This document shows, piece by piece, positions 6,843 to 50,676 of a DNA stretch of 64,000 bases. The notes beneath the pieces are model-generated. The model saw nothing but the letters and a program-made list of their open reading frames with translations. It did no database searches and was not told where the DNA came from. Position numbers and translations under genes: made by a program. Each line of letters starts with the position of its first letter. Position 1 is the stretch's first letter. This DNA is from Candidatus Omnitrophota bacterium (GTDB taxonomy: Bacteria > Omnitrophota > Omnitrophia > Omnitrophales > Aquincolibacteriaceae), in assembly GCA_022711115.1 (NCBI GenBank), contig JAKLFP010000005.1:8572-72571 (forward strand), written 5' to 3'.

Positions 6843-7748
6843 GTGGAAGATTATCGCATAAGTAAGCTTCGTCTTCTTGAGGCCGAAAGTATTCACATTA
6901 TTCGTGAAGTGGCCGCGTCTTTCGAGCGTCCCGTCATGCTCTATTCCGTTGGGAAAGATTCCTCCGTCATGGTGCGGCTGGCCCAGAAGGCTTTTCATCC
7001 CGGCAAACTTCCATTTCCTCTTCTTCATGTGGATACCGGCATGAAATTCAAAGAAATGTACCAATTCCGGGATCGGTTCACGAAAGAAATCGGAGCGGAA
7101 TTGCGTGTCTATAAGTTCCAGAAGGCCATGGACCAGGGAACTAATCCGTGGGATCTCGGGACAATCCAATGCTGTGCCCTTCTTAAAACCCAGGCCCTTT
7201 TGAATGCCCTTCAAGAGGGAGGGTATCAAGCCGCGCTTGGAGGTGCCAGGCGGGATGAAGAGAAATCCAGGGCCAAAGAACGTATTTTTTCTTTCCGGGA
7301 CGAATACGGGCAGTGGAATCCCAAGAACCAGCGTCCCGAGATTTGGAAGCTCTATAACACCCTGGCTGGCCAGAAAGAAAGCATCCGCGTTTTCCCGTTA
7401 TCCAACTGGACAGAACTTGATATCTGGCAATATATTCATCTTGAGAAGATCCCTGTGGTTCCGATGTATTTTGCCAAAGAAAGAGAAATGATCCTGCGCG
7501 AAGGGCAGCTGATCCCGCTGGACGGTCCTGTCCCTCTGAGGGAAGGGGAAAAACCCCAAAAGGTTCTTTGTCGATTCAGGACATTGGGCTGCTATCCCTG
7601 TACGGGTGCGGTCCGTTCCGCGGCTGCCACAGTGCCCGAGATTATAGAGGAGATCATGACCGTAAAAAATTCCGAGAGAATTACGCGCCTCATCGATCAT
7701 GATCAGGATTCTTCCATGGAACAAAAAAAGAAGGAAGGATATTTCTAG
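6843..7748 (+). CDS. cysD: sulfate adenylyltransferase subunit 2
   Basis: PAPS-reductase-like fold motif [12 protein letters not shown] and overall CysD-like length and sequence. Its stop overlaps the start of the next gene (TAGTG). Confidence 0.9.
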
Positions 7749-9679
7749 TGCCGCAAGGGGCCAAGAGTGTTCACACAATTCTTGAGCAAAGCGAAAAAGC
7801 GGATCTTCTCCGTTTTACGACCGTAGGAAGCGTGGATGACGGAAAATCAACGTTGATCGGGCGATTACTCTATGAAGCGGGGGGACTTTATGAGGATCAG
7901 CTGGCTGCGATTCGCAAAGACTCCGGGAGATTCAAGCGCGAAGAGTTTGACCTCTCGCTTGCCATGGACGGCCTGAAGGCTGAACGGGAACAGGCAATCA
8001 CCATCGATGTTGCTTACCGTTATTTTTCCACGCCGAAACGCCACTTTATCATTGCCGATACGCCGGGCCACGAACAGTATACGCGCAACATGGCGACAGG
8101 CGCCTCCACGGCCGATCTGGCGATCATCCTGATTGATGCCTGCCACGGTGTTTCCATTCAGTCCAAGCGTCATGCCTTTATCGCTTCGCTTCTCGGTATC
8201 CGGCATATGGTGGTGGCCGTCAACAAAATGGATCTTGTGGATTATTCCGAGGAGGTTTTCCGGAAAGTTGAAGAAGATTTCAATATTTTTGCTGAAAAGC
8301 TGAGAATTTCCGACCTCATGTTCATACCGATCAGCGCGCTGAAAGGGGACAATGTCGTTAAAAAAAGCGGAAACACTCCCTGGTATGAAGGATCGGCCCT
8401 GTTGTCTCATCTTGAGACTGTTCATGTCCAAAGTGACCGGAACCTGATTGATCTGAGGTTCCCAGTGCAATATGTCCTGAGGCCGGACCGAAATTTCCGG
8501 GGATATTGCGGACAACTTGCCGGAGGAGTGCTGCGCAAAAAAGACGAAGTACTGGTTTTGCCTTCTTTGAGGAAAACGCACATTCGATCCATCTCTACCG
8601 GCGAAAAAGAAGTGCCTTATGCCTTTGCGCTTCAATCCATCACCGTGACACTTGAAGACGAAGTCGATGTGACGCGAGGCGATATGGTAGTTCACTCAGG
8701 GAATCTGCCGAAGATCCAGCGTGAAACGGATGCCATCCTCGTGTGGATGGATGAAAAACCCTTAAAAACGGGAGAGGTTTATCTGATCAAACATACCACG
8801 CAGCTTCTCAAAGGGACGGTTGCGCATCTTCATTTCAGCATTGACCCGGATGATCTGAAGCGAAAAAAGGCCAAAGAACTGAAGATGAACGAAATCGGCA
8901 GGGCGACGGTTCAGTTTTTTCGGTCTGTTTTCTGCGATGATTATGCGAGGAACCGTGAAACCGGAAGTTTTATCATGATCGATCCGGTGACCCATGCGAC
9001 TGTGGCCTCAGGAATGATCATCGAGAGAGGGCATCTTCCTTTGATGGCCAAACCGGATGAAAAGGCCTCGGTCAAAAGTCCGTTTCTGCACCGGCAGGAA
9101 GGGATCATATCTCTCAAAGATCGCAGCCGTTTATTGCGCCAAAAACCAGCAACGCTATGGATGACCGGCCTGAGCAGTTCGGGAAAATCCACGATTGCTT
9201 TTGAACTGGAAAAAAGGCTCATGGCTGAAGGTCGCTTGTGTTATGTTCTCGACGGTGACAATGTCCGTTATGGATTGAACCGTGATCTCGGATTTTCGCC
9301 GCAGGACCGGAGCGAGAATATTCGCCGCGTAGCCGAAGTTGCGAATCTTTTTAACGAAGCCGGCGTGATTGTGATCACAGCTTTTATTTCGCCGTACCGG
9401 GAAGACCGGGCACAGGCAAGAAAGATCATCGGGGCTGAACGATTCATCGAGGTTTTCGTGGATGCGCCGGTCGAGGTTTGCGAAACAAGAGATCCCAAAG
9501 GACTTTACAAAAAAGCGAAGAGGGGAGAGATTCCGGAATTTACAGGTGTGAATGCTCCCTATGAAGTGCCGGAATCGCCCGAGGTCCATCTGAAGACCGG
9601 AGAAGAAAGTACGGATCTTTCCGCGGGAAAAGTTTACCAGTATTTGAAGGAACGCGGGTGTCTGGAGGCCTGCGAGTAA
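7748..9679 (+). CDS. cysNC: bifunctional sulfate adenylyltransferase subunit 1 / adenylylsulfate kinase (CysN-CysC fusion)
   Basis: N-terminal GTPase motifs (GSVDDGKSTLIGRL, DTPGH, NKMD) as in CysN. The C-terminal domain has the APS-kinase P-loop LWMTGLSSSGKST and CysC-like motifs (DGDNVR, FISPYREDR). Confidence 0.9.
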   Translation: MPQGAKSVHTILEQSEKADLLRFTTVGSVDDGKSTLIGRLLYEAGGLYEDQLAAIRKDSGRFKREEFDLSLAMDGLKAEREQAITIDVAYRYFSTPKRHFIIADTPGHEQYTRNMATGASTADLAIILIDACHGVSIQSKRHAFIASLLGIRHMVVAVNKMDLVDYSEEVFRKVEEDFNIFAEKLRISDLMFIPISALKGDNVVKKSGNTPWYEGSALLSHLETVHVQSDRNLIDLRFPVQYVLRPDRNFRGYCGQLAGGVLRKKDEVLVLPSLRKTHIRSISTGEKEVPYAFALQSITVTLEDEVDVTRGDMVVHSGNLPKIQRETDAILVWMDEKPLKTGEVYLIKHTTQLLKGTVAHLHFSIDPDDLKRKKAKELKMNEIGRATVQFFRSVFCDDYARNRETGSFIMIDPVTHATVASGMIIERGHLPLMAKPDEKASVKSPFLHRQEGIISLKDRSRLLRQKPATLWMTGLSSSGKSTIAFELEKRLMAEGRLCYVLDGDNVRYGLNRDLGFSPQDRSENIRRVAEVANLFNEAGVIVITAFISPYREDRAQARKIIGAERFIEVFVDAPVEVCETRDPKGLYKKAKRGEIPEFTGVNAPYEVPESPEVHLKTGEESTDLSAGKVYQYLKERGCLEACE

Positions 9680-9715
9680 ATTTTTTTGAATGTCATTTAA
9701 AAAGGAGAAAATGTC

Positions 9716-10468
9716 ATGACCTATTTGATTATAGCAGGCATTACTTTTTTGAGTGAATATCTTGATTCCGGCCTTGGCATGGGATACGGGACGGCGCTCG
9801 CGCCGATTCTTATTTTGATGGGATTCGACCCGGTTCAGGTCGTACCGGCAGTGCTTATTTCCCAGCTGTTTACTGACATCGCCGCCTGCATCAGCCATCA
9901 TAAAATGTTCAATGTGGATCTGAAGCCGGGCTCACAGGATTTCAAGGCAGCATCCCTTCTGGGATTGATGAGCGTGATTGGGGTCGTGATCGCTGTTTTT
10001 GTGGCGGTCAAGATTCCAAAAAAGATCCTGACCCTGTATATCGGGTTGCTTGTTGCATCCATGGGAGCACTTGTCCTTTATACGACGAATCGGCCCATGA
10101 AGTTCTCCTGGAAGAAATTGATGGGCATCAGCCTTTTGGCCTCTTTCAATAAAGGTATTTCAGGCGGCGGCTATGGACCGCTTGTGATGGGAGGACAAAT
10201 GCTCTCCGGCGTTCACGTCAAGAGTGCCGTCGGGATTACGGCATTTGCCGAAGCCATTACGTGCCTCGCGGGTTTTCTTATTTATATTATTACAGGAAAG
10301 GCTATTGATTGGAAGTTGACGCTTACTTTGATCATTTTTGCGACAGGGGCTGTGCCGGTTGCGGCCATGACCGTCAAGCACGCTCCTTCCGCATCTTTGA
10401 AAAGGTATGTCGGGATTATGATGCTGCTGCTCGGCTTTCTGACCTTAACCAAAGTTGCCGGATCTTAA
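9716..10468 (+). CDS. TauE/SafE (DUF81) family anion transporter
   Basis: 250 aa with 7-8 TM segments and the internal-repeat glycine motifs typical of TauE/SafE sulfite/sulfonate exporter family proteins. It sits directly after cysNC. Confidence 0.75.
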   Translation: MTYLIIAGITFLSEYLDSGLGMGYGTALAPILILMGFDPVQVVPAVLISQLFTDIAACISHHKMFNVDLKPGSQDFKAASLLGLMSVIGVVIAVFVAVKIPKKILTLYIGLLVASMGALVLYTTNRPMKFSWKKLMGISLLASFNKGISGGGYGPLVMGGQMLSGVHVKSAVGITAFAEAITCLAGFLIYIITGKAIDWKLTLTLIIFATGAVPVAAMTVKHAPSASLKRYVGIMMLLLGFLTLTKVAGS

Positions 10469-10593: not shown

Positions 10594-12321
10594 ATGGAAC
10601 GTATACTTCTGATCAATCCATCAGGTTGGCAGAAGGAGAGCATTAATTTAGGACTCTCCTATTTAGCTTCTTCTTTAATGGCCCATGGGTTTGATGTGCT
10701 CATTCTTGATTTGAATCGTTATGAAATGAGCGATGCCGCATTCTTGGAAAATGTCCGTCAGTTTAGTCCTCGTTTGGTTGGAATATCCATAAAAACTGCA
10801 ACAGCACGAGAAGGGGGGCGACTATCGCGACTCCTGAAGGAAGCGATGCCTGAAGTGATTACCGTTGCTGGCGGACCCCACATGTCTCTCTGCCCAGAAT
10901 CTTATATGCGAGATTATCCTTCCATTTCTTTCGGTGTTATGGGGGAGGGTGAGGAAGCTATGGTCCATTTAGCCAAAGCAATATGCAATGGCGGAAAAGT
11001 GGAAAAACTCAACGGGATCGTATGGAGACAGAACGGTCAAATTCTCCTCAATAAATGGATGCCGCCGGAGAACCTCGATGCTCTGATGTTTCCCAACCTT
11101 GATGTGATTCAGGGGTTTAGTTGGAAAAATTTTCGCTACCCAATACTTTCCAGTCGAGGTTGTCCTTTTGGTTGTATTTATTGCTGTGTGAATAAGCTGA
11201 CTGGTTCCAGAAAGTGGCGTTACCGTACTCCGGAAAATGTGGTGGATGAACTGGAATCGCTTGTGCGAACGAAAGGCATCACTTCTTTTGAAATTTGGGA
11301 TGATAACTTTACATTGGACTTGTCGCGTGCGAAAAAAATTTGCCAATTACTTATCGATCGCAAGCTTAATTTATCCTGGTACTGCCATAATGGAATCCGG
11401 GCCGACCGCATTGATGAAGAGCTGGCTCAAATGATGAAAGCGGCGGGTTGCACAAGCCTGGCTTTTGGCGTTGAGAGCGGAAGTCCTGTCACCTTTGCCG
11501 CCATTAAAAAGGGAGAACCCCTTTCCGCAGTCATTAACGCTGTGAAATTAGTCAAAAAGGCCGGTATCAAAGCCGTTGGCTATTTCATCATAGGACTTCC
11601 TGGGGACACTTTGGAAAGGTTTGTTGAAACGGTTTATTTCCAACGATCCCTCGAGTTGGATCATTATGTCTACGGCATGCTCATCCCTTATCCCCATACG
11701 GAACTCTGGGAAATAGTACAAACTCATGGAACTATGTTCTGCGAAATTACCGAAACACAACACTTCAGCGATGACATGGTTCCAATCTCGTTTGAGCTGC
11801 CAGATTTTCCGAAAGCCGATATGATTCGAGCGTTCTATATTGCCAAATATTTCGACTTGTTTGATGCAATCCGGCAGGTTGCTGACAGCGTCAACCTAAC
11901 CGTGGTCCATCATGTCTCTCCTCCCATGATAAGTCATCTGCCGGGCATGTTTATTGCCGGAGGCTCGAAAATTTGCCATGTAGTCGTTGGCGGGGATGAG
12001 GCTGTTGTGCGGGCACTGCCTTCTTTCACGCAGGTACCAAACACAACCAAAATATTATTTTCTGATAACATGCCTTCAGACATTCCTTTTGAAAATCAAA
12101 TAGCTGTCGTCGATCAAGGCTCTAATATATTGGAACGCATTTCTCCCGATTCCGGCCTTGTCTTATTCGATGCGAGGCGGCCGCTTCGTCATTTGACTCT
12201 AGTGCGGCTTCCCAAGGCTGGATCTTTGGGTGCGCGCGGAGCACCTGACAGTGATTTGAAAAACGATGAAAAGAAGAATGTGTTTTCCAAAGCACTGGAT
12301 GCTTTGGGTATTCATCCATGA
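10594..12321 (+). CDS. B12-binding-domain radical SAM protein (copy 1) with C-terminal extension
   Basis: N-terminal Rossmann-like cobalamin-binding region (ILLINPSGW ... VAGGPH). The radical SAM cluster motif is CPFGCIYCC, followed by a glycine-rich SAM motif. About 175 aa of unassigned C-terminal tail. Confidence 0.8.
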   Translation: MERILLINPSGWQKESINLGLSYLASSLMAHGFDVLILDLNRYEMSDAAFLENVRQFSPRLVGISIKTATAREGGRLSRLLKEAMPEVITVAGGPHMSLCPESYMRDYPSISFGVMGEGEEAMVHLAKAICNGGKVEKLNGIVWRQNGQILLNKWMPPENLDALMFPNLDVIQGFSWKNFRYPILSSRGCPFGCIYCCVNKLTGSRKWRYRTPENVVDELESLVRTKGITSFEIWDDNFTLDLSRAKKICQLLIDRKLNLSWYCHNGIRADRIDEELAQMMKAAGCTSLAFGVESGSPVTFAAIKKGEPLSAVINAVKLVKKAGIKAVGYFIIGLPGDTLERFVETVYFQRSLELDHYVYGMLIPYPHTELWEIVQTHGTMFCEITETQHFSDDMVPISFELPDFPKADMIRAFYIAKYFDLFDAIRQVADSVNLTVVHHVSPPMISHLPGMFIAGGSKICHVVVGGDEAVVRALPSFTQVPNTTKILFSDNMPSDIPFENQIAVVDQGSNILERISPDSGLVLFDARRPLRHLTLVRLPKAGSLGARGAPDSDLKNDEKKNVFSKALDALGIHP

Positions 12322-12567
12322 GCATGGATCACAAGATGCCATCCGGACATAGCTGTGACCAGCCACCATGCGGTTTACGCCTTATGATGAAAAATGCTAG
12401 ATCTTTTTTTCTTTCAAAAATTTCATTAAAGACTTCGCTTCAAAGTCTTAAAAAAAATATTGCCGGTATGGGTAAAATCCTGCAAACACTGAAGCCGGAC
12501 CGGAAATTTTTATGGGTAAAAATACAACTCTTGATGAAACGAAAATCGAAACAAAACTTTCCATACG

Positions 12568-13800
12568 ATGAAAATTCTTCATATTTGTGATTGGTATACC
12601 CCTATTGGGGGAGCCGAGAAACTTCTTTTCGGGACACTTGATAGGCTGGAGCAAAAAGGCCACACAAATATCGTGGTTTTCAACGAACATCCCCATCAGG
12701 GCCTGACGGGGAAGCGTGCTGAGTATGCCTGCAAGTTTCTGGAGCTTTTTGTGTATTTTCATCCTGACGCACCCTCTTTCGCAATGCAGTCTATTCCGCG
12801 ACTCAAGGAGATTATTGACCGGCATGCCCCTGATGTCTGTCATATCCACAATTTTCAAAATCCCTATGCGACAGAATTTTTGCTTGAAGAAATTCCCTGC
12901 GTTCGTTCTATTCACGATCCTCGCCTCTATTGTTTTACGAACTGGCGGTTACTGCCGGATCGCAGTATTTGCCCTTACCCTCTTGGTGTTGAATGTCTTC
13001 GACAAGGTTGTTTGTCTTCCGGGCTAAAGCCGAAGACCGATTTTGATAGGAACGCTTTTTGGGTATTGAGGCATCACAACCTGCATAAAAAGATGCCGGC
13101 GCTTATCCTGGAAAGCCGGATGCAAATGGACTGTATGATCCAGAACGGATTTTCACCGAAACAGCTTTTCTGGCTGCCTAATTCGACGTCGATTCAGCCC
13201 ATAACCGAGGTGCGGGAGTTTGTGGAAAAACACCATGACCCGAATGAACGCATCGTTCTGTTTGTCGGGCGGGCTTCGTATGAAAAGGGGATTCATGTGC
13301 TGGTGGAATCTTGTCGGTATCTTCGCAGTGACTGCAAGATTGTAATTATCACAGCGGGTCCTTTGCTTGAAGAGATCCAGCAGCAAGCTGCTGAATTTGG
13401 CGATCGCATTGAGGTGATTCCCGGGCTGTCTTATGAAGAAACCCGGGTCTACTATGCTCGAGCCTCCGTGGTGGCGGTCCCATCGGTTTGGCTTGAAAAT
13501 TTCTGTCTGGTCGGTCTGGAGGCCTTTGCCAATATGAGGCCCGTGATTGGTTCTCGTATCGGGGGTATCCGCGACTGGATGAAAGAGGAAGAGACAGGAT
13601 GGTTTTTTGAGCCGGGGAATTCAAAAGATCTGGCGGCTAGAATCGATAACGCATTCGAGAACAAAGAACGTCTTCAAGCCATGGGTGAGAGTGCGTATCG
13701 GCGAGTACAAACATATTATAACCAGGATCTCTATACCTTTCGTTTGTTAGAAATTTATTCAAAAGGAATCGAATATTTTAATGCTGAGAGGTGTCTGTGA
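12568..13800 (+). CDS. glycosyltransferase family 1 (GT4-like), copy 1
   Basis: N-terminal MKILHICDWYTPIGGAE and a C-terminal GT-B nucleotide-sugar-binding region (EAFANMRPVIGSRIGGIRDW). It is a paralog of the protein at 28071-29342. Confidence 0.75.
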   Translation: MKILHICDWYTPIGGAEKLLFGTLDRLEQKGHTNIVVFNEHPHQGLTGKRAEYACKFLELFVYFHPDAPSFAMQSIPRLKEIIDRHAPDVCHIHNFQNPYATEFLLEEIPCVRSIHDPRLYCFTNWRLLPDRSICPYPLGVECLRQGCLSSGLKPKTDFDRNAFWVLRHHNLHKKMPALILESRMQMDCMIQNGFSPKQLFWLPNSTSIQPITEVREFVEKHHDPNERIVLFVGRASYEKGIHVLVESCRYLRSDCKIVIITAGPLLEEIQQQAAEFGDRIEVIPGLSYEETRVYYARASVVAVPSVWLENFCLVGLEAFANMRPVIGSRIGGIRDWMKEEETGWFFEPGNSKDLAARIDNAFENKERLQAMGESAYRRVQTYYNQDLYTFRLLEIYSKGIEYFNAERCL

Positions 13801-14846
13801 AGGTCGCTTTGGTAAAGACACACAACCAGGTGCGTCTGGATGAGATCAAGACACCTGTGCCGAGTCCGGGTGAGGTTCTGCTTCAAATCGATGCTTGTGG
13901 TGTCTGCGGTAGCGACTATCTTGAGGCGACGGCTTGGGCGCACTCGTGGAAGCGTTTTGGTCATGAAATAGCCGCCACAGTATTTGCTACAGGAAACGGG
14001 GTAGAAGGATTCGCGGTGGGAGATCAAGTGGTTGTGGCGCTCTCTGTTGCTTGTGGGACATGCAAAAGCTGCCTAGCGGGTCATCCAAGACATTGTTCTC
14101 GTCTTATTATTGCAGAGCAAGGCGGTTTTGGAGATTATTTGTTGGTCAAAGATACCCGCCTTTTATTCAAAGTGGAGCCTCGCCTTCCGGTTGAATTAGC
14201 GGTCTTCACAGAGCCTGTTACCGTTGTGTTGGATGCTTTCCATCTTGTTGAATTAAAACCGGAAGATAAATTAGTAGTGATTGGCGGTGGTTTTATCGCC
14301 TGTATCGCTCTTTTGATCGCCAAGATTCTTGGGGTGATCCATCCCTTGGTATTAAGCCGCAAATCTCATCCGCTGCTGGATGCCTGTCTGGCATCGACAG
14401 GAGGGGATTATGTTTCATGGCTTGCAGTGGGAGAACATACGGTGGCAGCGCCAGAGACTTTTGCACAAAAACTCGCAGAACATACAGGACGTGTTGTGGC
14501 CATCCATACAGCTCCCGCCAAGTTCATGCCTCTTTATATTGAAAAATTGCCCTATGATTCTTGTGTCGTGAATTTGGGTTTGTCTGCAAGCGACAAAGAT
14601 AATGAGATGCCATTGGATGCATCGCGGCTTATTTTTAAAAGAATGCAAATTATGAGTGCTTTTCCGGTTCCCTGTCTTTACCTTGCGGAGGCGGTTCATC
14701 TTCTCCAGAAAAATCAGGATTTATTTTCTCTCCTGACCCCTGAAAGTCTTCCTCTCGAGCGGTTACCGGAAGTGATTGCAGCACCCCGGAAATTAAAACG
14801 TAAAATCATGATCGTTTCCCAACCGTCCGGAGGATTACGATCATGA
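13791..14846 (+). CDS. zinc-dependent medium-chain dehydrogenase/reductase (sorbitol/threonine dehydrogenase-like)
   Basis: CGVCGSD and GHE catalytic-zinc motifs, a structural-zinc Cys cluster (CGTCKSC...C) and a GGGFIA Rossmann motif. The start is 13791 (GTG) or 13797 (GTGA overlap with the upstream stop). Confidence 0.75.
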   Translation: MSVKVALVKTHNQVRLDEIKTPVPSPGEVLLQIDACGVCGSDYLEATAWAHSWKRFGHEIAATVFATGNGVEGFAVGDQVVVALSVACGTCKSCLAGHPRHCSRLIIAEQGGFGDYLLVKDTRLLFKVEPRLPVELAVFTEPVTVVLDAFHLVELKPEDKLVVIGGGFIACIALLIAKILGVIHPLVLSRKSHPLLDACLASTGGDYVSWLAVGEHTVAAPETFAQKLAEHTGRVVAIHTAPAKFMPLYIEKLPYDSCVVNLGLSASDKDNEMPLDASRLIFKRMQIMSAFPVPCLYLAEAVHLLQKNQDLFSLLTPESLPLERLPEVIAAPRKLKRKIMIVSQPSGGLRS

Positions 14847-17023: not shown

Positions 17024-17056
17024 ATAACCGGCAATTCATTCCAAGAAAGGAAGAGT

Positions 17057-26220: not shown

Positions 26221-28074
26221 ATGAAAATCCTTTTGATCAACCCGCCGGGGTGGCAGGACGGAAGTGTCAGTCTTGGGCTGGCGTATCTTTCAGGCGCTTT
26301 GCTTCAAGGAGGTCACGAGGTCAAAATTCTTGATTTCACCGGGAAAAACACAACGCCGGAAGCCATTGCCGAGATGGCAAGAGAGTGGGAGCCTGAGTTC
26401 ATTGGCTTACATATAAAGACAGCACAGGCTAATACCGCATCTAAAATTTCCAAGGCTATAAAGAAAATTTTTCCTCATGCGCTTCATGTGGCAGGGGGGC
26501 CGCATGTGACGCTTTGTTATGAAAAATACCTGAAGGAGAATCCGGAGTTTGAATATGGATTCTCGGGAGAGGCCGATCGCAGTTTTCCCGAGTTTTGCGA
26601 AAGGATTCAGAAAAAGGAATCTGTTGAAAGCCTGGGAGGACTGATCTTCCGGCGAAACGGAAAAATCATTCTAAACACACCGGAACCGATTCTTGATCTT
26701 GATCATTTGCCGCAGCCCTGTTTTGATGTTATGGAAGGTTTCCATTGGGCTGGATTTCGTTACCCTCTTTTAACAAGCCGCGGATGTTCCTATCAGTGTA
26801 ATTTTTGTTCCGTTCCTCGTTTATCAGGAAAAAAATTTCGTTATCGATCACCGCAAAATTGCATCGAAGAATTAGCTCGCGTTAAAGCTGACAAAGGGAT
26901 CCAATCGTTCGAAATTCTCGATGACAATTTTACGTTTTTGATGGATCGCGCAAAAGATTTCTGTCGCAAGTTGATCAAGGCCGATCTCCATCTCTCATGG
27001 TATTGCCATAACGGTATCCGTGCCGACAGGTTTGACGATGAACTTGCCGGACTCATGAAAGAAGCGGGGTGCACGAGCGTTGCTTTTGGTATTGAATCGG
27101 GTGATGAGGCCGTGTTCCGCAGGATCAATAAAGGCGAAAAACTGGAGCAGATTGTACAGGCGATTGCCACGGCCCGAAAGGCAGGGCTTCAGACGGTCGG
27201 ATATTTTATTATCGGGCTTCCGGGGGATAGTTTGCAGGCGGTGAAGAGAACGATCGCTTTCCAGAAAACTCTCAAGCTGGACCATTATATCTATGGCATT
27301 TTTATACCTTACCCCGGGACCAAGGGAGAAGAGGATGTCTTAAGGGAAGGCAGAATCCTTCGGGATATTAGGGAAACAAGCCATTTTTCTGACCGGCCAC
27401 AAGTTCCCATCGAATACCCTTATTTTACAAAAGAAGAGATAGAAGAGGCTTACTATTTGGCATCTGCGGGGGAGTTGCTTGATCTTATCGAAACATGGAA
27501 GATCAACGGTTCCTTGAAAAATGTTATTTTTGTTGAAATGAATCCGCCGACCTATGCCTTTCGCAGGTTTTCTCGATGGGTGGAGGGAGGGATGGATCTT
27601 TTGATCAATGCGATTTTTGACGGCTGTTTTGAGCTTGATAAAAAAGAAGGATCGGTGCGGCAGGTCTATTCCTACCAACATTATTTGTATCGCTGGCGGA
27701 TGATTCGAGAACTCGTCAGTCATTTTTGGCTTCTTCGGAAAAAAAGATACCAATTGGCTTTTTTCCCGTTCAAAAGAAGAAAATCCGTCCTTTTATTTTT
27801 TTGGGCGATTGTGGGTGCGAAACATACTGTGCTTTATGATTTTGAGGGGAGCCGTTTTGTGGAAATCTCTCTGCGAAGCCCCCATTTCCGGTCTTTTTTG
27901 AAAAGATACATAAAAAAGCAAATCCCAAACATTCCCTGGATATTGCTCGACGGCATCAGCGGTATCTTTGAAGGCGTCCTTCAAAGGATCATTCATGCCG
28001 GTATTTGTTGTTATCTCTATTTCCGAAAGCCTTTTTCATCGGAAGCTCTTCAAAAGGAAAACGGAGAAAAATGA
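26221..28074 (+). CDS. B12-binding-domain radical SAM protein (copy 2) with divergent C-terminal extension
   Basis: Paralog of 10594-12321 with the same order of B12-binding, radical SAM (CSYQCNFC) and SAM motifs. About 200 aa of extra hydrophobic/basic C-terminal tail. Confidence 0.8.
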   Translation: MKILLINPPGWQDGSVSLGLAYLSGALLQGGHEVKILDFTGKNTTPEAIAEMAREWEPEFIGLHIKTAQANTASKISKAIKKIFPHALHVAGGPHVTLCYEKYLKENPEFEYGFSGEADRSFPEFCERIQKKESVESLGGLIFRRNGKIILNTPEPILDLDHLPQPCFDVMEGFHWAGFRYPLLTSRGCSYQCNFCSVPRLSGKKFRYRSPQNCIEELARVKADKGIQSFEILDDNFTFLMDRAKDFCRKLIKADLHLSWYCHNGIRADRFDDELAGLMKEAGCTSVAFGIESGDEAVFRRINKGEKLEQIVQAIATARKAGLQTVGYFIIGLPGDSLQAVKRTIAFQKTLKLDHYIYGIFIPYPGTKGEEDVLREGRILRDIRETSHFSDRPQVPIEYPYFTKEEIEEAYYLASAGELLDLIETWKINGSLKNVIFVEMNPPTYAFRRFSRWVEGGMDLLINAIFDGCFELDKKEGSVRQVYSYQHYLYRWRMIRELVSHFWLLRKKRYQLAFFPFKRRKSVLLFFWAIVGAKHTVLYDFEGSRFVEISLRSPHFRSFLKRYIKKQIPNIPWILLDGISGIFEGVLQRIIHAGICCYLYFRKPFSSEALQKENGEK

Positions 28075-29342
28075 AAATACTCCATGTCTGTGATTGGTAT
28101 CGGCCGTTTGGAGGTGCGGAAAGGCTTCTCTTGGGGACATTGGAACTTTTGGAGGCGGCAGGGCATCAAAATATCATAATCACTTCGGATCACCCCTCGC
28201 AGATGAGGACGGGTAAGCGTTTGGAATATTTCCTTCCCAATCTCGAAATCAATTTCGCGTTATTGCCCCGGTGGAGAATTTTTGCACGAAATATGAAACA
28301 GCTTCAAAAAAACATCGGAGCTATTATCCGGGAACACAGGCCGGATGTGATTCATATCCACAATCTGCAAAATCCTTATGTGATTCAAATCTTAACTCCA
28401 TTGGCTCCTACGGTGCGATCTGTTCATGATCCAAGGCTTTATTGTTTTACGAACTGGAGATTGCTTCCCAATAACGAAATTTGTCCTCATCCTCTGGGAA
28501 AGGCTTGCCTAAAAGAAAAATGCTTGTCGTGGAACTTTTTGAGGCTTTCGAACACTGAAAAATGGGCGCCGTTCAAGTTAATGCATTTGCGCGAAAACAA
28601 AAAAATCGATATGCTGATAGCGGAATCTCATGCCGTGGAAGCCTGTTTAAGGCAAAATGGATTCTCCGATCTCCAGATTGCTCTGCTTCCTAATTACACG
28701 GAGAAAAAAGGGGAATGGCGGCAGGTCGAAGCATTTAACCGGCGTTATCACGTTCCAGGACAACGCGTGGTTGTTTTTGTGGGCAGGGCTTCTTACGAAA
28801 AAGGAATAGAGCATTTGGTGGAAGCCATGGCGCTGATCCCTAGGCCGTGGAAGCTGGTCCTTGTGACGGGCGGGGAATATCTCGGCCGGGTGCGTGAAAA
28901 GATCGAGGCTTTGAATCTTGGCGATGCCGTAGAGATCCCCGGAGTTCATGATTATGAAACAACACGCACCTATTATGCCCGCTCCGATGTGGTGGTTGTT
29001 CCTTCTGTTTGGATGGAATCTTTTTGTCTGGTGGGGCTTGAGGCGATGGCAAACGGGAAACCCGTTGTTGCTTTTCGGGCAGGCGGTATTCCGGATTGGC
29101 TTCTAGACAATGAAACAGGCCTTTTGGCGCCTGTCAGGGATGTCAAAGCGCTCGCGGGGAAAATACAAACATTGCTTGATAATGAAAAACTTGCCCGTGA
29201 AATGGGCAGAAAAGGATATGAAAGAGCCGCAAAAGTTTTTTCGAAAGAACGATATCTTTCGGCTCTGGAAGGAATTTTTCAAAAAGCAATCCAGCTGAAA
29301 AACAAAAGCCATAAAGCAAACGTTACACAAAACCAAGCCTAA
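28071..29342 (+). CDS. glycosyltransferase family 1 (GT4-like), copy 2
   Basis: MKILHVCDWYRPFGGAE N-terminus and GT-B C-terminal motif EAMANGKPVVAFRAGGIPDW. ATGA overlap with the upstream radical SAM gene; the ORF-track start at 28005 was rejected as an upstream read-through. Confidence 0.75.
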   Translation: MKILHVCDWYRPFGGAERLLLGTLELLEAAGHQNIIITSDHPSQMRTGKRLEYFLPNLEINFALLPRWRIFARNMKQLQKNIGAIIREHRPDVIHIHNLQNPYVIQILTPLAPTVRSVHDPRLYCFTNWRLLPNNEICPHPLGKACLKEKCLSWNFLRLSNTEKWAPFKLMHLRENKKIDMLIAESHAVEACLRQNGFSDLQIALLPNYTEKKGEWRQVEAFNRRYHVPGQRVVVFVGRASYEKGIEHLVEAMALIPRPWKLVLVTGGEYLGRVREKIEALNLGDAVEIPGVHDYETTRTYYARSDVVVVPSVWMESFCLVGLEAMANGKPVVAFRAGGIPDWLLDNETGLLAPVRDVKALAGKIQTLLDNEKLAREMGRKGYERAAKVFSKERYLSALEGIFQKAIQLKNKSHKANVTQNQA

Positions 29343-29484: not shown

Positions 29485-30702
29485 ATGAAAATTGCTTTTT
29501 TCCACAATCTTCCGTCCGGCGGCGGTCTCAAAACGCTTTGTCAGAAAGCAAATTGTCTCAGGCAAAAAGGGCATGAGATTGTCGTTTATAGTTTTAGTTC
29601 CGCGGAGAAGGACTTCCCTCGCTTATGGGATCATGTCACGGATCATCAAGTCGTGATTCCGTTGGAGTTTAGGGGGGGCGGAAAATACCGTGCGTATCAG
29701 AAGGCTTCGGAAGAACTGGCGGGACGGATCAATCAGTCGGATGTGGATATGGTGCTTGTTGACAAGTGCCGGTTTTTGGGTTCGCCGACGATGATGCGGT
29801 ATTTGAAGAAACCGTTTATTTTTTACACGCAGGAGCCCTTACGGTACAAAGAACATGAACGTTTAGCGCCCCCTGATTTTTTAGCAAAGAATTTTATCCA
29901 TAAAAAAAAGCCAATACAGGCGGGCGGCAGAGGGTTCCGTTTGGGGCAGATCTTTGATCACTTGATGATCCGAAAAATCGATCGGCAAAATTTACGCAAA
30001 GCTGAAAATATTTGGACCAATTCCTGTTTTAGCCAGGCGTGGCTTCAGCGTGTCTATAATGTTCGTGCGGAAGTGGTTTATCAGGGGATCGATGTGGAAT
30101 GCTTCAAACCCGAACCCGGTCTTAAAAAAACAAACCGGGTTCTTTCAGTGGGACGGATTAGCCGGATCAAAGGCTATGATCTGCTTTTAGAAGCCATCAC
30201 AAAAATTCCTGTTGCCGTGAGACCGGGATGGGACATCGTTTGTGATGATGAAACTTCATCCTATTCGATGGGACTCCAGAAACAGGCTGAGGAAAACGGG
30301 GTTGACTTGCGTGTCTTCAGACGGATTCATGAAAAAGAGCTTTGCCGTTTATATCAGGAAAGCAAGGTTGTTCTTTGTGCTTCCCACCGGGAACCCTTTG
30401 GATTGGTCCCGCTGGAAGCGATGGCTTGCGGAACGCCGGTGATTGCAGTGGATGAGGGGGGGTATCGGGAAACGGTTGTTCATGGAAAAACAGGCCTTTT
30501 ATTGCCGCGGGATCCGGCGCTCTGGGTCCAACACATTCAAGAAATCTTTAAAGAACCTGAGATGAGGGAAAATTTTGGAACCGCGGGACGACAACGAGTA
30601 GAACGGCAGTGGACTTGGAAAAATTTTATAGATGCGATAGAATCCTGGGCACAAAGCCATTTAGAAAGAGGCGACAAAATTCATGGACCGCGTCCCACAT
30701 AA
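29485..30702 (+). CDS. glycosyltransferase family 1 (GT4)
   Basis: The EPFGLVPLEAMACGTPVIAVDEGGYRETV motif is the canonical GT4 E-x7-E nucleotide-sugar-binding block. Confidence 0.8.
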   Translation: MKIAFFHNLPSGGGLKTLCQKANCLRQKGHEIVVYSFSSAEKDFPRLWDHVTDHQVVIPLEFRGGGKYRAYQKASEELAGRINQSDVDMVLVDKCRFLGSPTMMRYLKKPFIFYTQEPLRYKEHERLAPPDFLAKNFIHKKKPIQAGGRGFRLGQIFDHLMIRKIDRQNLRKAENIWTNSCFSQAWLQRVYNVRAEVVYQGIDVECFKPEPGLKKTNRVLSVGRISRIKGYDLLLEAITKIPVAVRPGWDIVCDDETSSYSMGLQKQAEENGVDLRVFRRIHEKELCRLYQESKVVLCASHREPFGLVPLEAMACGTPVIAVDEGGYRETVVHGKTGLLLPRDPALWVQHIQEIFKEPEMRENFGTAGRQRVERQWTWKNFIDAIESWAQSHLERGDKIHGPRPT

Positions 30703-31687
30703 AACAGTCAAGTTGACCATTATCATTGTGAATTGCGATACTCCGGAATTGACGATGGACTGCATCTACTCTATTTATCAATTCAAGCCGTCATGCCCCT
30801 TTGAAGTCATCCTTGTCAACAATGGTACGAACGGAATCGAGGCAGAGCATCTGAAAGAATTTCCCGGGATTAAAATGATCAAGACCGGCAGCAACCTGGG
30901 ATTCAGCAGGGCCAATAATCTCGGGATTTATAATTCCTTGGGTGATTTTATCGTTCTCCTCAATAGCGATACCAAGTTGATCGATCGGAGTTTTGACGCC
31001 ATGCTGGACTATATGGAAGAAGCCAAAAACCGGCATGTCGGAGCACTGGGCCCCAGAGAAGTGGACGGTGAACAACGGTTTCGCCTTTCCTGTGGTTCTT
31101 TCCCGACTTTTTTTTCCGAATTGACCAGAAAAGTTTGGCACTACCGTCTTTCGATCAATGATTATAATTTGCGCGATTATCTTGATTCAAAGCACGCGAT
31201 CATGAAAGACGTGGACTGGGTATCCGGCTCCTGCCTGATGCTGCGCCGGTTGGCGCTTCATGAGGCCGGTTTGCTGGATGAAAGCTTTTTCTTGTATTTT
31301 GAGGACATTGATCTTTGCAGCCGTTTGTGGAAAAAAAAGTGGGAAGTTCACTATTTCCCGGAAACCAGCGTGATTCACTATGGGGGCGGCTCTGCCCGGA
31401 AAAACTTGATGCTGGCCATGACGGAATACCGCCGCAGTGAGATTTATTTTGTCAGGAAATATTATGGTTGGCTTGGGGAAATGGGGATTCGCTTTTTTCT
31501 GTTTTTAAAATACGGCTACTATTTTGCGAAACAGTATCCTGTTTTTCTGATCCGGAAATTCCTCAAAAAAAGGTTCCGGGAGGCTTACGTGGCCGCGCTG
31601 CTTTCAAAAAAAGTCGTCGAAATCACATGGGATGCTGTCAATGCCAATCCCATCGAGCCTCCTTTAAAGATGAAAGGCAAAAGCTGA
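30683..31687 (+). CDS. glycosyltransferase family 2
   Basis: LTIIIVNCDTPELT (GT-A N-terminus), the VLLNSDT DxD-like block and a GT2-typical length. 20-nt overlap with the upstream GT1. Confidence 0.75.
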   Translation: MDRVPHKTVKLTIIIVNCDTPELTMDCIYSIYQFKPSCPFEVILVNNGTNGIEAEHLKEFPGIKMIKTGSNLGFSRANNLGIYNSLGDFIVLLNSDTKLIDRSFDAMLDYMEEAKNRHVGALGPREVDGEQRFRLSCGSFPTFFSELTRKVWHYRLSINDYNLRDYLDSKHAIMKDVDWVSGSCLMLRRLALHEAGLLDESFFLYFEDIDLCSRLWKKKWEVHYFPETSVIHYGGGSARKNLMLAMTEYRRSEIYFVRKYYGWLGEMGIRFFLFLKYGYYFAKQYPVFLIRKFLKKRFREAYVAALLSKKVVEITWDAVNANPIEPPLKMKGKS

Positions 31688-31791: not shown

Positions 31792-32601
31792 ATGTTACTT
31801 GATACCTTCACCCACTTACAAGACATGACAGACGATAAGTTTGTCTCTCCGCTCAAGAAGATGAACTCTTTGACAGAGTCCATGAAACTTTATTGTCTCG
31901 GCGTCAGTCCTGAAGACTGGTCTTTGGTAAGTAACATCGTTTATGAGAGCGGCGACATCATCGTTCCTTTTTTTGGGATCCATCCGTGTCATGTGAACCA
32001 CACCCCGCCCGGATGGGAAAATCAGCTTAAGAATATCTGTGTCAAGCACATCGAATCCGGGGTCGGGGAGATCGGGCTTGATAAAGCGACAAAGGCGACG
32101 GATTACGAAAAGCAGAAGGAGATTTTCAAAGCTCAGGTCAATCTCTCGGAGAAGCTTCTCAGGCCGATGGTGATCAGTTGTGTCCAGGCGTGGGACGATC
32201 TTTACTCGGTCTTGAGCGGCATCAACACTTATAGCTCCCGCTTTATGATCAAAGCCTATGACGGACCTTCGAGTATGCTGAAAAAACTGCTGGATCTCGG
32301 TGGTTTTATCTCGTTTTCCCACAGGCAGCTTGCCAGCGGGAAAGAGTTCATCAAGAATCTTTTGGCGGATGTGCCATTGGACCGGTTGCTGGTAGGGACG
32401 GATTATCCTTTTTCGGAGAACCGCAAAATCGAAGCCGTCACAAGCTACGACAAATATCTTGCCCGGCTCCGGGAAACTTATACCCTGGCAAGGCAGGGCC
32501 GAGATATTGAAGAGGCGGAATTTAAAAAGACCTTGTACGCCAACGGGGATTACTTTGTTACGGGGCATAAGAACCCCAAAGACAAAAAAAAGCTTCTCTG
32601 A
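31792..32601 (+). CDS. TatD-family metal-dependent hydrolase
   Basis: GEIGLD and LLVGTDYPF motifs of the TatD/amidohydrolase TIM-barrel fold. The antisense ORF 31816-32568 was rejected. Confidence 0.6.
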   Translation: MLLDTFTHLQDMTDDKFVSPLKKMNSLTESMKLYCLGVSPEDWSLVSNIVYESGDIIVPFFGIHPCHVNHTPPGWENQLKNICVKHIESGVGEIGLDKATKATDYEKQKEIFKAQVNLSEKLLRPMVISCVQAWDDLYSVLSGINTYSSRFMIKAYDGPSSMLKKLLDLGGFISFSHRQLASGKEFIKNLLADVPLDRLLVGTDYPFSENRKIEAVTSYDKYLARLRETYTLARQGRDIEEAEFKKTLYANGDYFVTGHKNPKDKKKLL

Positions 32602-33100
32602 AATTCCGCATCAAGCTTCTCAATATTCCACCTTCTGGTTGTTCCTTATTTGCAAATATTACTGAAACACAAAATTCAACTCACCTTCGACATCATCTTT
32701 TCGATTAGAACAAACGAATAACAAATTTTCGCATTTTCGTGTTCGAACTTTTATTTTTAAAATCATTGCCAAAGCATATCTTTTTTCAAAAATACATTCT
32801 GTTTCACTGATTTTGATCGATGTAAATACAACTCAATCCAATCCAATACCAGCCAAAAACCTGCCGAGTTTACTTATTCTCGAAAAAGAAATATGAAACG
32901 TTTTTGTTCAATCATTCTTTAAAAAAGAGAAATCTTAAAGTATTTTCAAGTAAGGCTAGTTCCTGCTATATTCTGCTAGAAAGAACTTTCTCGGATGTCC
33001 TGGTCTGTCCCGGTCTGTCCTATTGTAGTAATTTCATCGATTGTTTATACTTCCTCCGTATTGAAAAAATTCGAATTACTAACTGAGGGGGACTCATCAC

Positions 33101-34003
33101 ATGAAAAAACTAATCATCATTGGCTTTATAATGCTTTCGTTTGTACCGGCGGCCTTTGCCGTTACGGTTCTTCCTGATCCTTCGACGACATACGATGGAC
33201 TTCCGGTGGCCTTACCCTATGATCAGTTTTTTTCTTACTCAACGAAATTACTTACCCAATTCGGTTATTCAGGATTTACCAATGCGGCGGGCGTCGGAGG
33301 ACTCGATGTTGTGCTTCTTACGCAGGCCGGCGGTATCGACAATGATCCTGTAAACGGAAGTTTTGTTTTTGAGGATCCCCAACCTTCTGCTACCGGTGGC
33401 ACGGACACATTGTCAGGCACATGGGGCGCTGGCAATGAAGCTCACGGCCCTGTACTTGTCGATAATTTGGTCGGATATTTGCATAATCAATTTGGTCCCA
33501 CCAATAATATCCCGGTATTTACTTTTGATATAGTAGAGCCGGGCAACGGTGATCCATTTTCTGGAATCCCGATTCCTCCAAGTCCGATTGATTTACAAAT
33601 GGTAGCAAAATTTAGCGTTTATGATCCTGTCACTAAAACGGACAAAGCAATTTGGTCGCTTGACGGTATCAACAATGGCTCATGGGATCCCAATGATTTT
33701 ATTACTGTTCACGGAAAACTATCGTTTCAAGGACTGTCCGGCACTGTTTATACAGCAGACAATACAGGGTCGGGGAAGTACGATTTTCTTGTCTATGCTC
33801 CGACCATGGATCTTAGCCAGTATACAGGGAAGGGGTATGAATTTCATATTAACACCCAAATGAAACTTTTGGATGGAGGTGGGGAGGAATCTTTTATTTC
33901 GGGTGCTTTTACGACCGGTAGGACGGTCACTCCCGAACCTGCAACTGTTCTTCTCCTTGGGACAGGTCTGTTAGGGTTAGTGATCAGGCGCAGGCTTTTC
34001 TAA
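33101..34003 (+). CDS. PEP-CTERM sorting-domain secreted protein
   Basis: Signal peptide, then the C-terminal PEP-CTERM signature VTPEPATVLLLGTGLLGLVIRRRLF (PEP motif, TM helix, Arg cluster). The gene follows a roughly 500-nt AT-rich leader. Confidence 0.8.
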   Translation: MKKLIIIGFIMLSFVPAAFAVTVLPDPSTTYDGLPVALPYDQFFSYSTKLLTQFGYSGFTNAAGVGGLDVVLLTQAGGIDNDPVNGSFVFEDPQPSATGGTDTLSGTWGAGNEAHGPVLVDNLVGYLHNQFGPTNNIPVFTFDIVEPGNGDPFSGIPIPPSPIDLQMVAKFSVYDPVTKTDKAIWSLDGINNGSWDPNDFITVHGKLSFQGLSGTVYTADNTGSGKYDFLVYAPTMDLSQYTGKGYEFHINTQMKLLDGGGEESFISGAFTTGRTVTPEPATVLLLGTGLLGLVIRRRLF

Positions 34004-50674: not shown

Positions 50675-50676
50675 CC

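Follow-up and report, generated by a model that had tools for sequence, protein, structure and literature searches.

A PAPS sulfotransferase on a repeat-built coiled coil beside a Wzm/Wzt exporter: a putative assembly locus for a sulfated, capped-type surface glycan in an Omnitrophota bacterium

In capped glycan pathways that depend on ATP-binding cassette (ABC) transporters, a coiled coil acts as a molecular ruler and carries the terminating enzyme at its distal end, accompanied either by a membrane-proximal amphipathic helix and polymerase site or by fused polymerase glycosyltransferases, and the carbohydrate-binding module (CBM) of Wzt lets through capped chains only (PMC11231755). [quoted passage not shown] Here, we analyzed a 64,000-nucleotide stretch of DNA (hereafter the window) from an uncultured Candidatus Omnitrophota bacterium (metagenome-derived assembly GCA_022711115.1, contig JAKLFP010000005.1, positions 8,572 to 72,571), which encodes Wzm, a CBM-bearing Wzt and a 726-residue protein with a sulfotransferase domain at the distal end of a long coiled coil. 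At the level of architecture, the locus looks like a new version of the known mechanism, in which a sulfotransferase dependent on 3′-phosphoadenosine-5′-phosphosulfate (PAPS) would be carried on a repeat-built coiled coil beside a CBM-bearing Wzt. It is quite probable that the locus makes a sulfated glycan exported by Wzm/Wzt. The fuller reading, an ABC transporter-dependent assembly line for a sulfated, capped-type and length-measured surface glycan, seems to us evenly poised.

The locus resembles the WbdD-WbdA systems of Escherichia coli O9a and Klebsiella pneumoniae O3 in having Wzm and a Wzt with a C-terminal CBM, in encoding its glycosyltransferases as separate proteins, and in possessing a separate protein that, like WbdD, carries an N-terminal modifying enzyme on an extended coiled coil, the C-terminal end of which may likewise be a short membrane-type segment. 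However, the head of WbdD comprises a kinase and a methyltransferase, whereas that of the Omnitrophota protein is a predicted PAPS sulfotransferase. Unlike the O9a and O3 loci, the window locus also adjoins genes for PAPS synthesis and holds three radical S-adenosylmethionine (SAM) enzymes. The WbdD ruler described by Hagelueken and colleagues in 2015 is said to be much shorter than the ~365 residues of 42-residue repeats found here.

Sulfated polysaccharide loci with their own PAPS genes are also known. The capsule of Vibrio sp. KMM 8419 is sulfated and structurally solved, and its locus combines KpsMT-type ABC export with second copies of cysC, cysN and cysD and three sulfotransferases; its authors regard PAPS genes and sulfotransferases in a polysaccharide cluster as a hallmark of sulfated polysaccharide synthesis (PMC11641403, 2024). 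PAPS-synthesis genes, three sulfotransferases, glycosyltransferases and an ABC exporter likewise stand in one locus in the window. The two loci differ in that the Vibrio exporter is of the KpsMT/KpsDE capsule type rather than Wzm/Wzt, and the Vibrio paper reports no Wzt-type CBM, coiled-coil terminator or radical-SAM enzymes. In addition, the Vibrio locus is an 80-gene composite region of a cultured gammaproteobacterium, and chemical analysis has established that its product is sulfated. Gene clusters are also on record for further sulfated glycans of bacteria, including synechan (PMC8205485), the Cobetia capsules (PMC11766843) and, in the related Planctomycetes-Verrucomicrobia-Chlamydiae group, the exopolymers of Pontiella (PMC7356697). 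An earlier reading of the window (hereafter the original prediction) had held that such a locus was not a described system, a view that the Vibrio capsule overturns. The general concept is already published, and the putative sulfotransferase-ruler architecture is the new part.

Dedicated PAPS supply for sulfated glycoconjugates is familiar from rhizobial NodPQ/NodH and mycobacterial CysDNC/Stf0. There, as in the window, PAPS synthesis of the CysD and CysN-CysC type is paired with carbohydrate sulfotransferases that belong to one superfamily, but the products are small sulfated glycolipids or lipo-chitooligosaccharides and not a Wzm/Wzt-exported polymer. We found no paper in the open literature that joins a sulfotransferase to a coiled-coil terminator. 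The abstract of the 2019 terminator census by Mann, Kimber and Whitfield reportedly mentions predicted new chemistries; these may include sulfotransferases, and an earlier prediction of sulfotransferase terminators through that census is conceivable and would reduce the novelty.

The Pfam scores of the three sulfotransferases in the locus were borderline (27.8, 28.1 and 23.1 bits), and therefore extra tests were run. The N-terminal 330 residues of the 726-residue protein retrieved 1439 homologues (E ≤ 1e-3), nearly all with a precomputed PF13469 assignment, and the PAPS-motif residues R16, R18 and G20 (RFRSGST) and R144 and S152 (RNSRD...S) were invariant in an alignment of 24 homologues. A profile of the domain gave only sub-threshold matches to tyrosylprotein sulfotransferases (TPSTs) and Stf1 among PDB sequences, so a fold search was needed. 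The first 37 PDB matches of an AlphaFold2 (AF2) model of the N-domain (pLDDT 93, pTM 0.91) were all PAPS sulfotransferases, with modest TM scores of 0.35-0.48; they included retinol dehydratase, TPSTs, cytosolic SULTs, Mycobacterium tuberculosis Stf1 and the curacin sulfotransferase domain. The N-domain is thus predicted to have the PAPS-sulfotransferase fold. The two small sulfotransferases, ST1a and ST1b, are paralogues (47% identical) with common motifs, PK(T/C)GTH and RDPRA...S, and ST1a aligned with mouse SULT7A1 over both PAPS-binding motifs, PKxGTH and RDPxxxxxS. The possibility that these genes encode unrelated P-loop proteins was not borne out.

In the 726-residue protein, the Sulfotransfer_3 domain (residues 1 to ~330) is the only catalytic domain and is followed by an apparent heptad coiled coil of ~365 residues, which includes about seven copies of a 42-residue repeat, and a basic tail, PKQFFQKNFIIKKIKKFF. 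Residues 340-708 contain no proline and at most two glycines per 56 residues, and their hydrophobicity is periodic at 3.5 and 7 residues. At the DNA level, a 126-bp unit is repeated 6.2 times over positions 15981-16765, with 83% matches and no indels, and each copy encodes 42 residues, or six heptads. The 83% identity of the copies without indels implies that the array expanded fairly recently. Coiled coils rise by about 1.5 Å per residue, which would give a stretch of ~365 residues a length in the region of 50 nm. The tail, which is preceded by Pro709, carries a net charge of +6, and in hydrophobic moment it does not exceed the average of the coiled coil. The original prediction had recognized the sulfotransferase motifs of this protein but overlooked the fusion, its most distinctive element. 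In our judgment, the case that this protein is a chain-terminating capping enzyme with a molecular ruler is finely balanced, and the further proposal that the cap itself is sulfate, read by the Wzt CBM, is a tentative one.

The gene lies in a seven-gene core (10594-20978) that encodes a B12-binding radical-SAM enzyme, a family 4 glycosyltransferase (GT4), a medium-chain (MDR) dehydrogenase, the sulfotransferase/coiled-coil protein, a radical-SAM/SPASM enzyme, Wzm and the CBM-bearing Wzt. The three closest homologues of the 726-residue protein (55-70% identity) are encoded on metagenomic contigs (L001-L003) whose core gene order is identical to that of the window. A scan of one genome per species yielded 80 loci. 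In tblastn comparisons with all window proteins, only L001-L006, that is, the three metagenomic contigs and metagenome-assembled genomes (MAGs) of Desulfovibrio, Maridesulfovibrio and "Deltaproteobacteria", had a complete or near-complete core. L005 is a contig of 6.9 kb on which the core is represented by the genes for GT4, the dehydrogenase, the sulfotransferase and Wzm/Wzt alone. Orthologues of the core GT4 (68-81% identity) and of the dehydrogenase occur in all six loci, and those of the B12-binding enzyme (62-66% identity) and of the radical-SAM/SPASM enzyme in five (L001-L004 and L006). On this comparative evidence, the core appears to be portable and horizontally mobile. Behind Wzt, L001 and L003 have one to three small sulfotransferases and L002 has a class-I SAM methyltransferase; homologues of ST1a come after Wzt in L001, L003 and L004. 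An orphan sulfotransferase gene directly after wzt was also noted, and left unexplained, in the O-antigen cluster of Aeromonas salmonicida (PMC4483657).

The Wzt_C module of the exporter (residues 287-424) scored 93 bits against a cutoff of 30.4, and the region is kept in L001-L008. The closest solved relatives of the Wzt nucleotide-binding domain are ABC ATPases of the O-antigen/teichoic-acid type, namely 8dku/7k2t (3e-80), which we take to be Aquifex aeolicus Wzt, followed by TarH and TagH.

Evidence for a ruler came from the wider sulfotransferase family. Close homologues with the same core have coiled-coil tails of ~140-200 residues that differ in length and in repeat unit (21 residues in P0001), and other long members are built from 7-residue (P0091) or 11-residue (P0086) units. 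At the far end, a motif of ~20 residues (L..T..ML.Q.E..L) is conserved among the close homologues. A ruler that docks at one end would be predicted to show just such a variable spacer and conserved terminal element. When 1.84 billion cluster representatives were searched with a profile, 898 family members were returned (E ≤ 1e-10), and about 25 of the best 70 are at least 600 residues long; sampled architectures include the sulfotransferase domain followed by 300-534 proline-free, charge-rich residues, by a GT2 domain, by a GT4 domain (1272 residues in all) or by a second sulfotransferase. Among the 82 loci with a usable open reading frame (ORF), sulfotransferases of at least 480 residues were found in 6 of 18 loci with a Wzm/Wzt match compared with 1 of 64 without (Fisher p = 3e-4, a rough figure because the sequences are related).

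In a Chloroflexi MAG (L007) and a KSB3 MAG (L010), the homologous domain (40-42% identity) belongs to Sulfotransfer_3/heptad repeat/Glycos_transf_2 fusions, whose GT2 part matched PF00535 at 1e-26 and 8e-23, respectively. The succession of a terminator-type enzyme, a coiled coil and a GT2 domain is that of K. pneumoniae O12 WbbB and O7 ORF6, which unite terminator, coiled coil and polymerase in one polypeptide, and the L007 fusion adjoins Wzm and a CBM-bearing Wzt. The L007 genes run Wzm, Wzt (with Wzt_C), sulfotransferase, sulfotransferase, fusion protein, MBOAT and epimerase, which is the same logic as in the window, in another phylum; at the KSB3 locus, no Wzm/Wzt was found within 10 kb. 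Unlike WbbB and O7 ORF6, the window has unfused glycosyltransferases and a sulfotransferase head instead of a Kdo transferase or a methyltransferase-kinase. In two further cluster representatives, P0381 and P0388 (1019 and 758 residues), the sulfotransferase is fused to a radical-SAM/SPASM domain. This fusion suggests that the 726-residue protein and the radical-SAM/SPASM enzyme encoded next to it act together, presumably on the same substrate, and perhaps the two make a two-step cap, by analogy with the kinase and methyltransferase of WbdD.

Overall, we provide a putative mechanism for glycan assembly at this locus. TauE would import sulfate, and CysD and CysNC would turn it into PAPS. At the cytoplasmic face, GT4 and GT2 enzymes would assemble the chain with polyprenyl as its carrier, starting from the product of an initiating enzyme encoded elsewhere, while ST1a and ST1b would sulfate internal residues and the radical-SAM enzymes, the dehydrogenase and the SGNH protein would add further modifications. 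The C-terminal end of the 726-residue protein would be anchored or docked at the membrane, with the sulfotransferase domain ~50 nm away at the tip of the coiled coil. When the growing chain reached this domain, its non-reducing end would be sulfated, possibly with the help of the adjacent radical-SAM/SPASM enzyme, and elongation would stop. The Wzt CBM would recognize the cap, so that finished chains alone would enter Wzm/Wzt. In the periplasm, a GT-C enzyme would add side residues, and a Wzy_C-family protein would ligate the glycan to an acceptor, either lipid A-core or protein. Sulfation as a "stop and export" signal, placed by a coiled-coil-borne PAPS sulfotransferase, possibly with the radical-SAM/SPASM enzyme, and read by the Wzt CBM, is a proposal that we advance with reserve. 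Such capping would be a previously uncharacterized chemistry in at least five phylum-level lineages (Omnitrophota, Desulfobacterota, Chloroflexi, KSB3 and Myxococcota).

The putative supply of PAPS lies at the edge of the core. CysNC, with its fused adenosine-5′-phosphosulfate (APS) kinase domain, is predicted to produce PAPS, the sulfotransferase donor. Its nearest relatives (72-75% identity) are in annotated Omnitrophota MAGs, and therefore cysNC is taken to be native to the lineage. In four Omnitrophota relatives (L084-L087), cysD-cysNC is a conserved unit, preceded by TauE in three and by an Rrf2-type regulator in two. Sulfate import by TauE-family permeases whose genes share an operon with sulfate adenylyltransferase has been demonstrated by experiment (PMC11535334; family background in PMC5840216), which makes sulfate import the likeliest role for the permease of the window. 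Neither cysH nor sulfite reductase was found within 10 kb of cysDNC in the four relatives, and no PAPS/APS reductase or sulfite reductase was found in the window; a cysH/cysIJ operon beside cysDNC, named in the original prediction as a refuting observation, was thus not seen. Glycan genes border the unit in all four relatives with a different content in each genome: methyltransferases and a GT2 gene in L084; genes for a 1260-residue pyruvyltransferase/GT2/GT2 protein and a 1076-residue RgpF/GT2/GT4 protein in L085; two GT2 genes and a Wzy_C gene in L086; and two sulfotransferases and two GT2 genes in L087. The cysD-cysNC edge may help as a fixed point from which to catalogue the surface glycans of Omnitrophota in their diversity. 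Of the 83 loci in all, seven have an APS-kinase or cysDN homologue no more than 10 kb from the sulfotransferase, and three Vicinamibacterales loci have a full cysD-cysN(C) set.

Several observations weigh against the reading of the locus as a dedicated, length-measuring assembly line. Most family members have 340-400 residues, no coiled coil and no nearby Wzm/Wzt, and hence the sulfotransferase domain is not in itself termination-specific. The enzymes of L004 (a Desulfovibrio MAG; 376 residues with a short tail) and L005 (361 residues) are short, and therefore a long ruler is not obligatory for the core. The closest homologues, P0001-P0003, are without the basic C-terminal tail, so the membrane-anchor reading rests on one sequence, and the copy number of the repeat may have been miscounted in a metagenome or short-read assembly, in which case the true ruler length may differ. 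No WecA/WbaP-type initiator (Glycos_transf_4 or Bac_transf) and no nucleotide-sugar pathway gene was found among the scanned long ORFs of the window. The lack of an initiator had been correctly stated in the original prediction. It does not exclude membership of the capped type, because model capped systems also encode wecA away from the O-antigen locus. Additionally, no sulfotransferase lies within 10 kb of cysDNC in three of the four Omnitrophota relatives, and tblastn with the window proteins detected no cysD, cysNC or TauE within 10 kb of any of the six related core loci. For these two reasons, cysDNC may simply be the general sulfate-activation operon of the genome.

The first group of these points bears on the role of the 726-residue protein, which might be a further in-chain sulfotransferase whose coiled coil serves oligomerization or scaffolding, with the cap being another group, such as methyl or a radical-SAM product. 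The stand-alone family members and the short-tailed enzymes of L004 and L005 fit this explanation, as do the class-I SAM methyltransferase that takes the place of the small sulfotransferases in L002 and the chemistry of the caps known to date (PMC11231755). Nevertheless, we regard it as unlikely, given that the coiled-coil protein bears a distal terminator in every characterized capped system (PMC11231755), that the sulfotransferase/coiled coil/GT2 and sulfotransferase...GT4 fusions match the terminator-ruler format exactly, and that no other catalytic domain is present on the protein. It is highly improbable that the substrate of the sulfotransferases is not a carbohydrate but a lipid or small molecule and that their glycan-gene neighborhood is incidental. 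Sulfotransfer_1 and Sulfotransfer_3 do include lipid, peptide and small-molecule enzymes, and TPST, SULT and polyketide sulfotransferases are among the top fold matches; however, sulfotransferase genes overlap the dehydrogenase and Wzt genes, their order relative to Wzm/Wzt and GT4 is conserved over seven loci, and in homologues the domain shares a single polypeptide with GT2 or GT4. A further alternative concerns the acceptor. The product may be another conjugate than the O-antigen of lipopolysaccharide (LPS), either protein-linked, through a PglL-like Wzy_C protein and possibly to PEP-CTERM/S-layer-type proteins, or a capsule-like polymer. The Wzy_C family spans WaaL ligases, PglL and polymerases, and the match of the window protein is weak and comes with no NCBIfam assignment; a PEP-CTERM protein is encoded downstream, an STT3/PglB-like gene adjoins the core in L002, and capped ABC pathways also produce non-LPS glycans (PMC11231755). 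We consider this somewhat unlikely, since the scans of the window revealed no exosortase (EpsH/Xrt), KpsD/E-type export gene, or outer-membrane polysaccharide export (OPX) or polysaccharide co-polymerase (PCP) gene, and since TatD and a 499-nt gap part the PEP-CTERM gene from the cluster. This alternative would alter the acceptor and not the assembly mechanism.

The remaining points concern cysD-cysNC-TauE, which could be ordinary sulfate activation for cysteine synthesis and a mere neighbor of the glycan locus, the cluster then being a mosaic rather than a dedicated pathway. This explanation is plausible, though we place it a little short of even. The vertical inheritance of CysNC in Omnitrophota, the conservation of the unit with or without sulfotransferases nearby, the Rrf2-type regulator of two relatives and the absence of cysDNC from all six other core loci speak for it. 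In contrast, no cysH, sir or cysK adjoins cysDNC in the five genomes, glycan genes flank it in all five, only 125 nt separate the unit from the core in the window, where both are on one strand, the PAPS produced by the fused APS kinase is the donor that sulfotransferases use, and separate cysC or cysDN copies stand beside homologous sulfotransferases at the seven loci mentioned above. The explanation is also compatible with an operon that still feeds the sulfotransferases. A conserved sulfate-activation operon that borders a hypervariable glycan locus, into which the sulfotransferase/exporter core was taken up in this genome, is consistent with the data. Of the "dedicated pathway" in the original prediction, the joint presence of PAPS synthesis, sulfotransferases and exporter stands, whereas the single unit does not: cysDNC does not migrate with the core but belongs to the conserved TauE-cysD-cysNC unit of Omnitrophota, and its dedication to glycan sulfation is not proven.

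Returning to the putative assembly line as a whole, its genes form part of an unbroken plus-strand run from 5353 to 34003, with 21 genes from Wzy_C to PEP-CTERM (Table 1). Eighteen co-directional genes, cysD through GT2, span 6843 to ~31687, and the cluster measures roughly 26 kb. The ORF list and the junction sequences agreed with the original prediction of a one-strand cluster with start/stop overlaps: TAGTG at 7746-7750 joins the cysD stop to the GTG start of cysNC, and ATGA overlaps were confirmed at 14843, 20975 and 28071. Two more junctions overlap, by 10 nt at 13791 and by 20 nt at 30683, and the remaining intergenic gaps are 17-246 nt, followed by 104 nt ahead of TatD and 499 nt ahead of the PEP-CTERM gene. 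Promoter and terminator scans gave counts near shuffled expectation and were hence not used to set operon limits, and no tRNA gene was found in the window. The G+C content is 47-50% in cysDNC and the flanks and falls to 40-43% over ~16-26 kb, a stretch that covers the distal core, the small sulfotransferases, the GT-C gene and the SGNH gene; this fall is consistent with horizontal acquisition of the segment 16000-26000. The cluster is accordingly a mosaic of a native sulfate-activation unit, the horizontally mobile seven-gene core and extra tailoring genes, among them a second B12-binding radical-SAM/GT4 pair and the GT-C enzyme.

Table 1. Genes of the window locus and the matches on which their assignments rest (bits are given against the family cutoff where stated)
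Feature	Coordinates	Strand	Evidence
Wzy_C/O-antigen-ligase-like polytopic membrane protein, 472 aa	5353-6771	+	Wzy_C 3e-8, 34 bits vs cutoff 31.7
CysD, sulfate adenylyltransferase small subunit	6843-7748	+	NF003587 5e-137; PAPS_reduct 9e-51
CysN-CysC fusion (ATP sulfurylase GTPase subunit and APS kinase)	7748-9679	+	NF004035 1e-270; APS_kinase 2e-69
TauE/SafE (TSUP) family permease	9716-10468	+	Pfam TauE 7e-28
B12-binding radical-SAM enzyme 1, 575 aa (core, first gene)	10594-12321	+	B12-binding 3e-22; Radical_SAM 6e-24
GT4 a (core)	12568-13800	+	Glycos_transf_1 9e-33
Zn-type medium-chain (MDR) dehydrogenase (core)	13791-14846	+	ADH_N 1e-20
Sulfotransferase/coiled-coil protein, 726 aa (core)	14843-17023	+	Sulfotransfer_3 27.8 bits vs cutoff 27
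Radical-SAM/SPASM enzyme, 577 aa (core)	17057-18790	+	Radical_SAM 8e-10; SPASM 4e-9
Wzm, ABC-2 permease (core)	18853-19638	+	ABC2_membrane 5e-17; weak NCBIfam matches to galactan Wzm, KpsM
Wzt, nucleotide-binding subunit with C-terminal carbohydrate-binding module (core)	19656-20978	+	ABC_tran 5e-25; Wzt_C 2e-26
ST1a, small sulfotransferase, 242 aa	20975-21703	+	Sulfotransfer_1 28.1 bits vs cutoff 22
ST1b, small sulfotransferase, 265 aa	21821-22618	+	Sulfotransfer_1 23.1 bits vs cutoff 22
Predicted GT-C-fold membrane glycosyltransferase, 707 aa	22735-24858	+	AF2 model and Foldseek
SGNH/GDSL hydrolase-like protein	25052-25981	+	Lipase_GDSL_2 1e-7; Lipase_GDSL 6e-6
B12-binding radical-SAM enzyme 2, 617 aa	26221-28074	+	Radical_SAM 4e-27; B12-binding 2e-18
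GT4 b	28071-29342	+	Glycos_transf_1 6e-39; ATG overlaps radical-SAM enzyme 2 stop
GT4 c	29485-30702	+	Glycos_transf_1 5e-36
GT2	30683-31687	+	Glycos_transf_2 2e-13; weak likeness to rhamnosyltransferase family TIGR01556
TatD	31792-32601	+	
PEP-CTERM protein	33101-34003	+	PEP-CTERM tail match 28 bits

The gene set listed in the original prediction (CysD, CysNC, three sulfotransferases, three GT4 enzymes and a GT2, a dehydrogenase, Wzm/Wzt, an SGNH protein and a PEP-CTERM protein) was confirmed by Pfam and NCBIfam, but the inventory was incomplete, as the three radical-SAM enzymes, the TauE transporter, the GT-C enzyme and the upstream Wzy_C gene had been overlooked. The PEP-CTERM gene, which had been counted as a cluster member, and the TatD gene probably lie outside the functional unit. 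Membership of the PEP-CTERM gene in an exosortase system was rejected, since no exosortase was found in the window. The Wzy_C gene, on the same strand and 71 nt upstream of cysD, encodes a candidate ligase for the exported glycan, WaaL- or PglL-like. Its orthology to the Wzy_C gene near cysDNC in L086 was considered and dismissed, as the two share a family-level motif match alone (E = 0.018).

The core GT4 a is a candidate chain-extending enzyme. The B12-binding radical-SAM enzymes 1 and 2 are paralogues (46% identical), and each is followed by a GT4 gene, so that the pair is present twice (10594-13800 and 26221-29342); the core GT4 orthologues of L001-L006 match GT4 b at 44-47% identity. The genes of the second pair overlap by 4 nt, and the orthologous pair overlaps in L001-L003 as well. 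This recurrence and overlap suggest that the B12-binding enzyme and its GT4 work as a unit. In L001-L003, the orthologues of enzyme 1 have 671-701 residues and overlap the next gene, whereas in the window the protein is shorter and a 246-nt non-coding gap follows (12322-12567). A frameshift was considered and rejected; no frame in 12200-12600 continues the homology, and therefore the C-terminal region (~150 residues) is absent here. Enzyme 1 falls under every NCBIfam equivalog cutoff, and all three radical-SAM enzymes, the dehydrogenase and the SGNH protein, the last with no signal peptide evident in its translation, are far under these cutoffs. The N-terminal extension of the radical-SAM/SPASM enzyme (~200 residues, 17057-17656) had no Pfam match and faintly resembles the CBM-like C-terminal sandwich of the GT-C protein (BLASTP E = 0.06); it would be unusual for a radical-SAM enzyme to carry a domain that binds glycans.

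The 707-residue protein had no Pfam match (E up to 10) and no PDB sequence match, and it was therefore placed through structure prediction alone. Several of its 246 homologues, in Methylococcales and Deltaproteobacteria MAGs, are ~65% identical, and none is informatively annotated. An AF2 model built from 42 sequences (pLDDT 89.3, pTM 0.86) matched AftD (9e-7), AftA (TM-score 0.51, normalized by target length), STT3, ArnT and EmbC in Foldseek, and its C-terminal beta-sandwich matched CBM6/CBM35 modules. D55 and D92 are invariant in 42 homologues; GT-C enzymes have conserved acidic residues in the first periplasmic loop. By this modeling, the protein would be the fifth glycosyltransferase of the locus, a GT-C type that works in the periplasm with polyprenyl-phosphate sugars, and it probably decorates the glycan there from such a donor.

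Some neighboring genes deserve mention. On the minus strand, 1666-3483, ~2 kb upstream of the Wzy_C gene and ~3.4 kb upstream of cysD, encodes an alkaline-phosphatase-superfamily protein (Phosphodiest 5e-20, with a weak Sulfatase match), and at the KSB3 locus a true sulfatase (6503-8026 of L010) is encoded directly upstream of the sulfotransferase-GT2 genes; such neighbors may serve turnover or editing of sulfate esters. Lone autotransporter beta-domain proteins (330-350 residues) are encoded beside the cluster in the window (35209-36261), L002 (2727-3752) and L003 (4440-5432). They were rejected as orthologues, and their co-location is probably coincidental, because no tblastn match (E < 1e-8) was found among the three. 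Two LssY_C-domain paralogues (45135-46517, plus strand; 58494-59849, minus strand) are unrelated to the locus, and one of them precedes an HlyD/fused ABC/ABC-2/OEP export set (46638-53233).

The sulfotransferase-ruler reading extends an established paradigm, rests wholly on inference from sequence and would be of note to those who study how bacteria assemble glycans. Established cap chemistries are few (methyl, methylphosphate and Kdo), and a sulfate cap, if true, would add one and tie the strategy to sulfur metabolism. The family offers natural variants for ruler testing outside enterobacteria, namely the sulfotransferase alone, coiled coils of ~40 to more than 500 residues and fusions to GT2, GT4 or radical-SAM domains, and, if the reading holds, ruler length would be tunable through repeat gain and loss. 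Sulfated bacterial polysaccharides are rare and wanted as biomaterials, and the compact, portable seven-gene core is a practical start for engineering. For the Omnitrophota, a barely studied phylum, our analysis suggests a strongly anionic, variable cell surface encoded beside a sulfate-activation operon.

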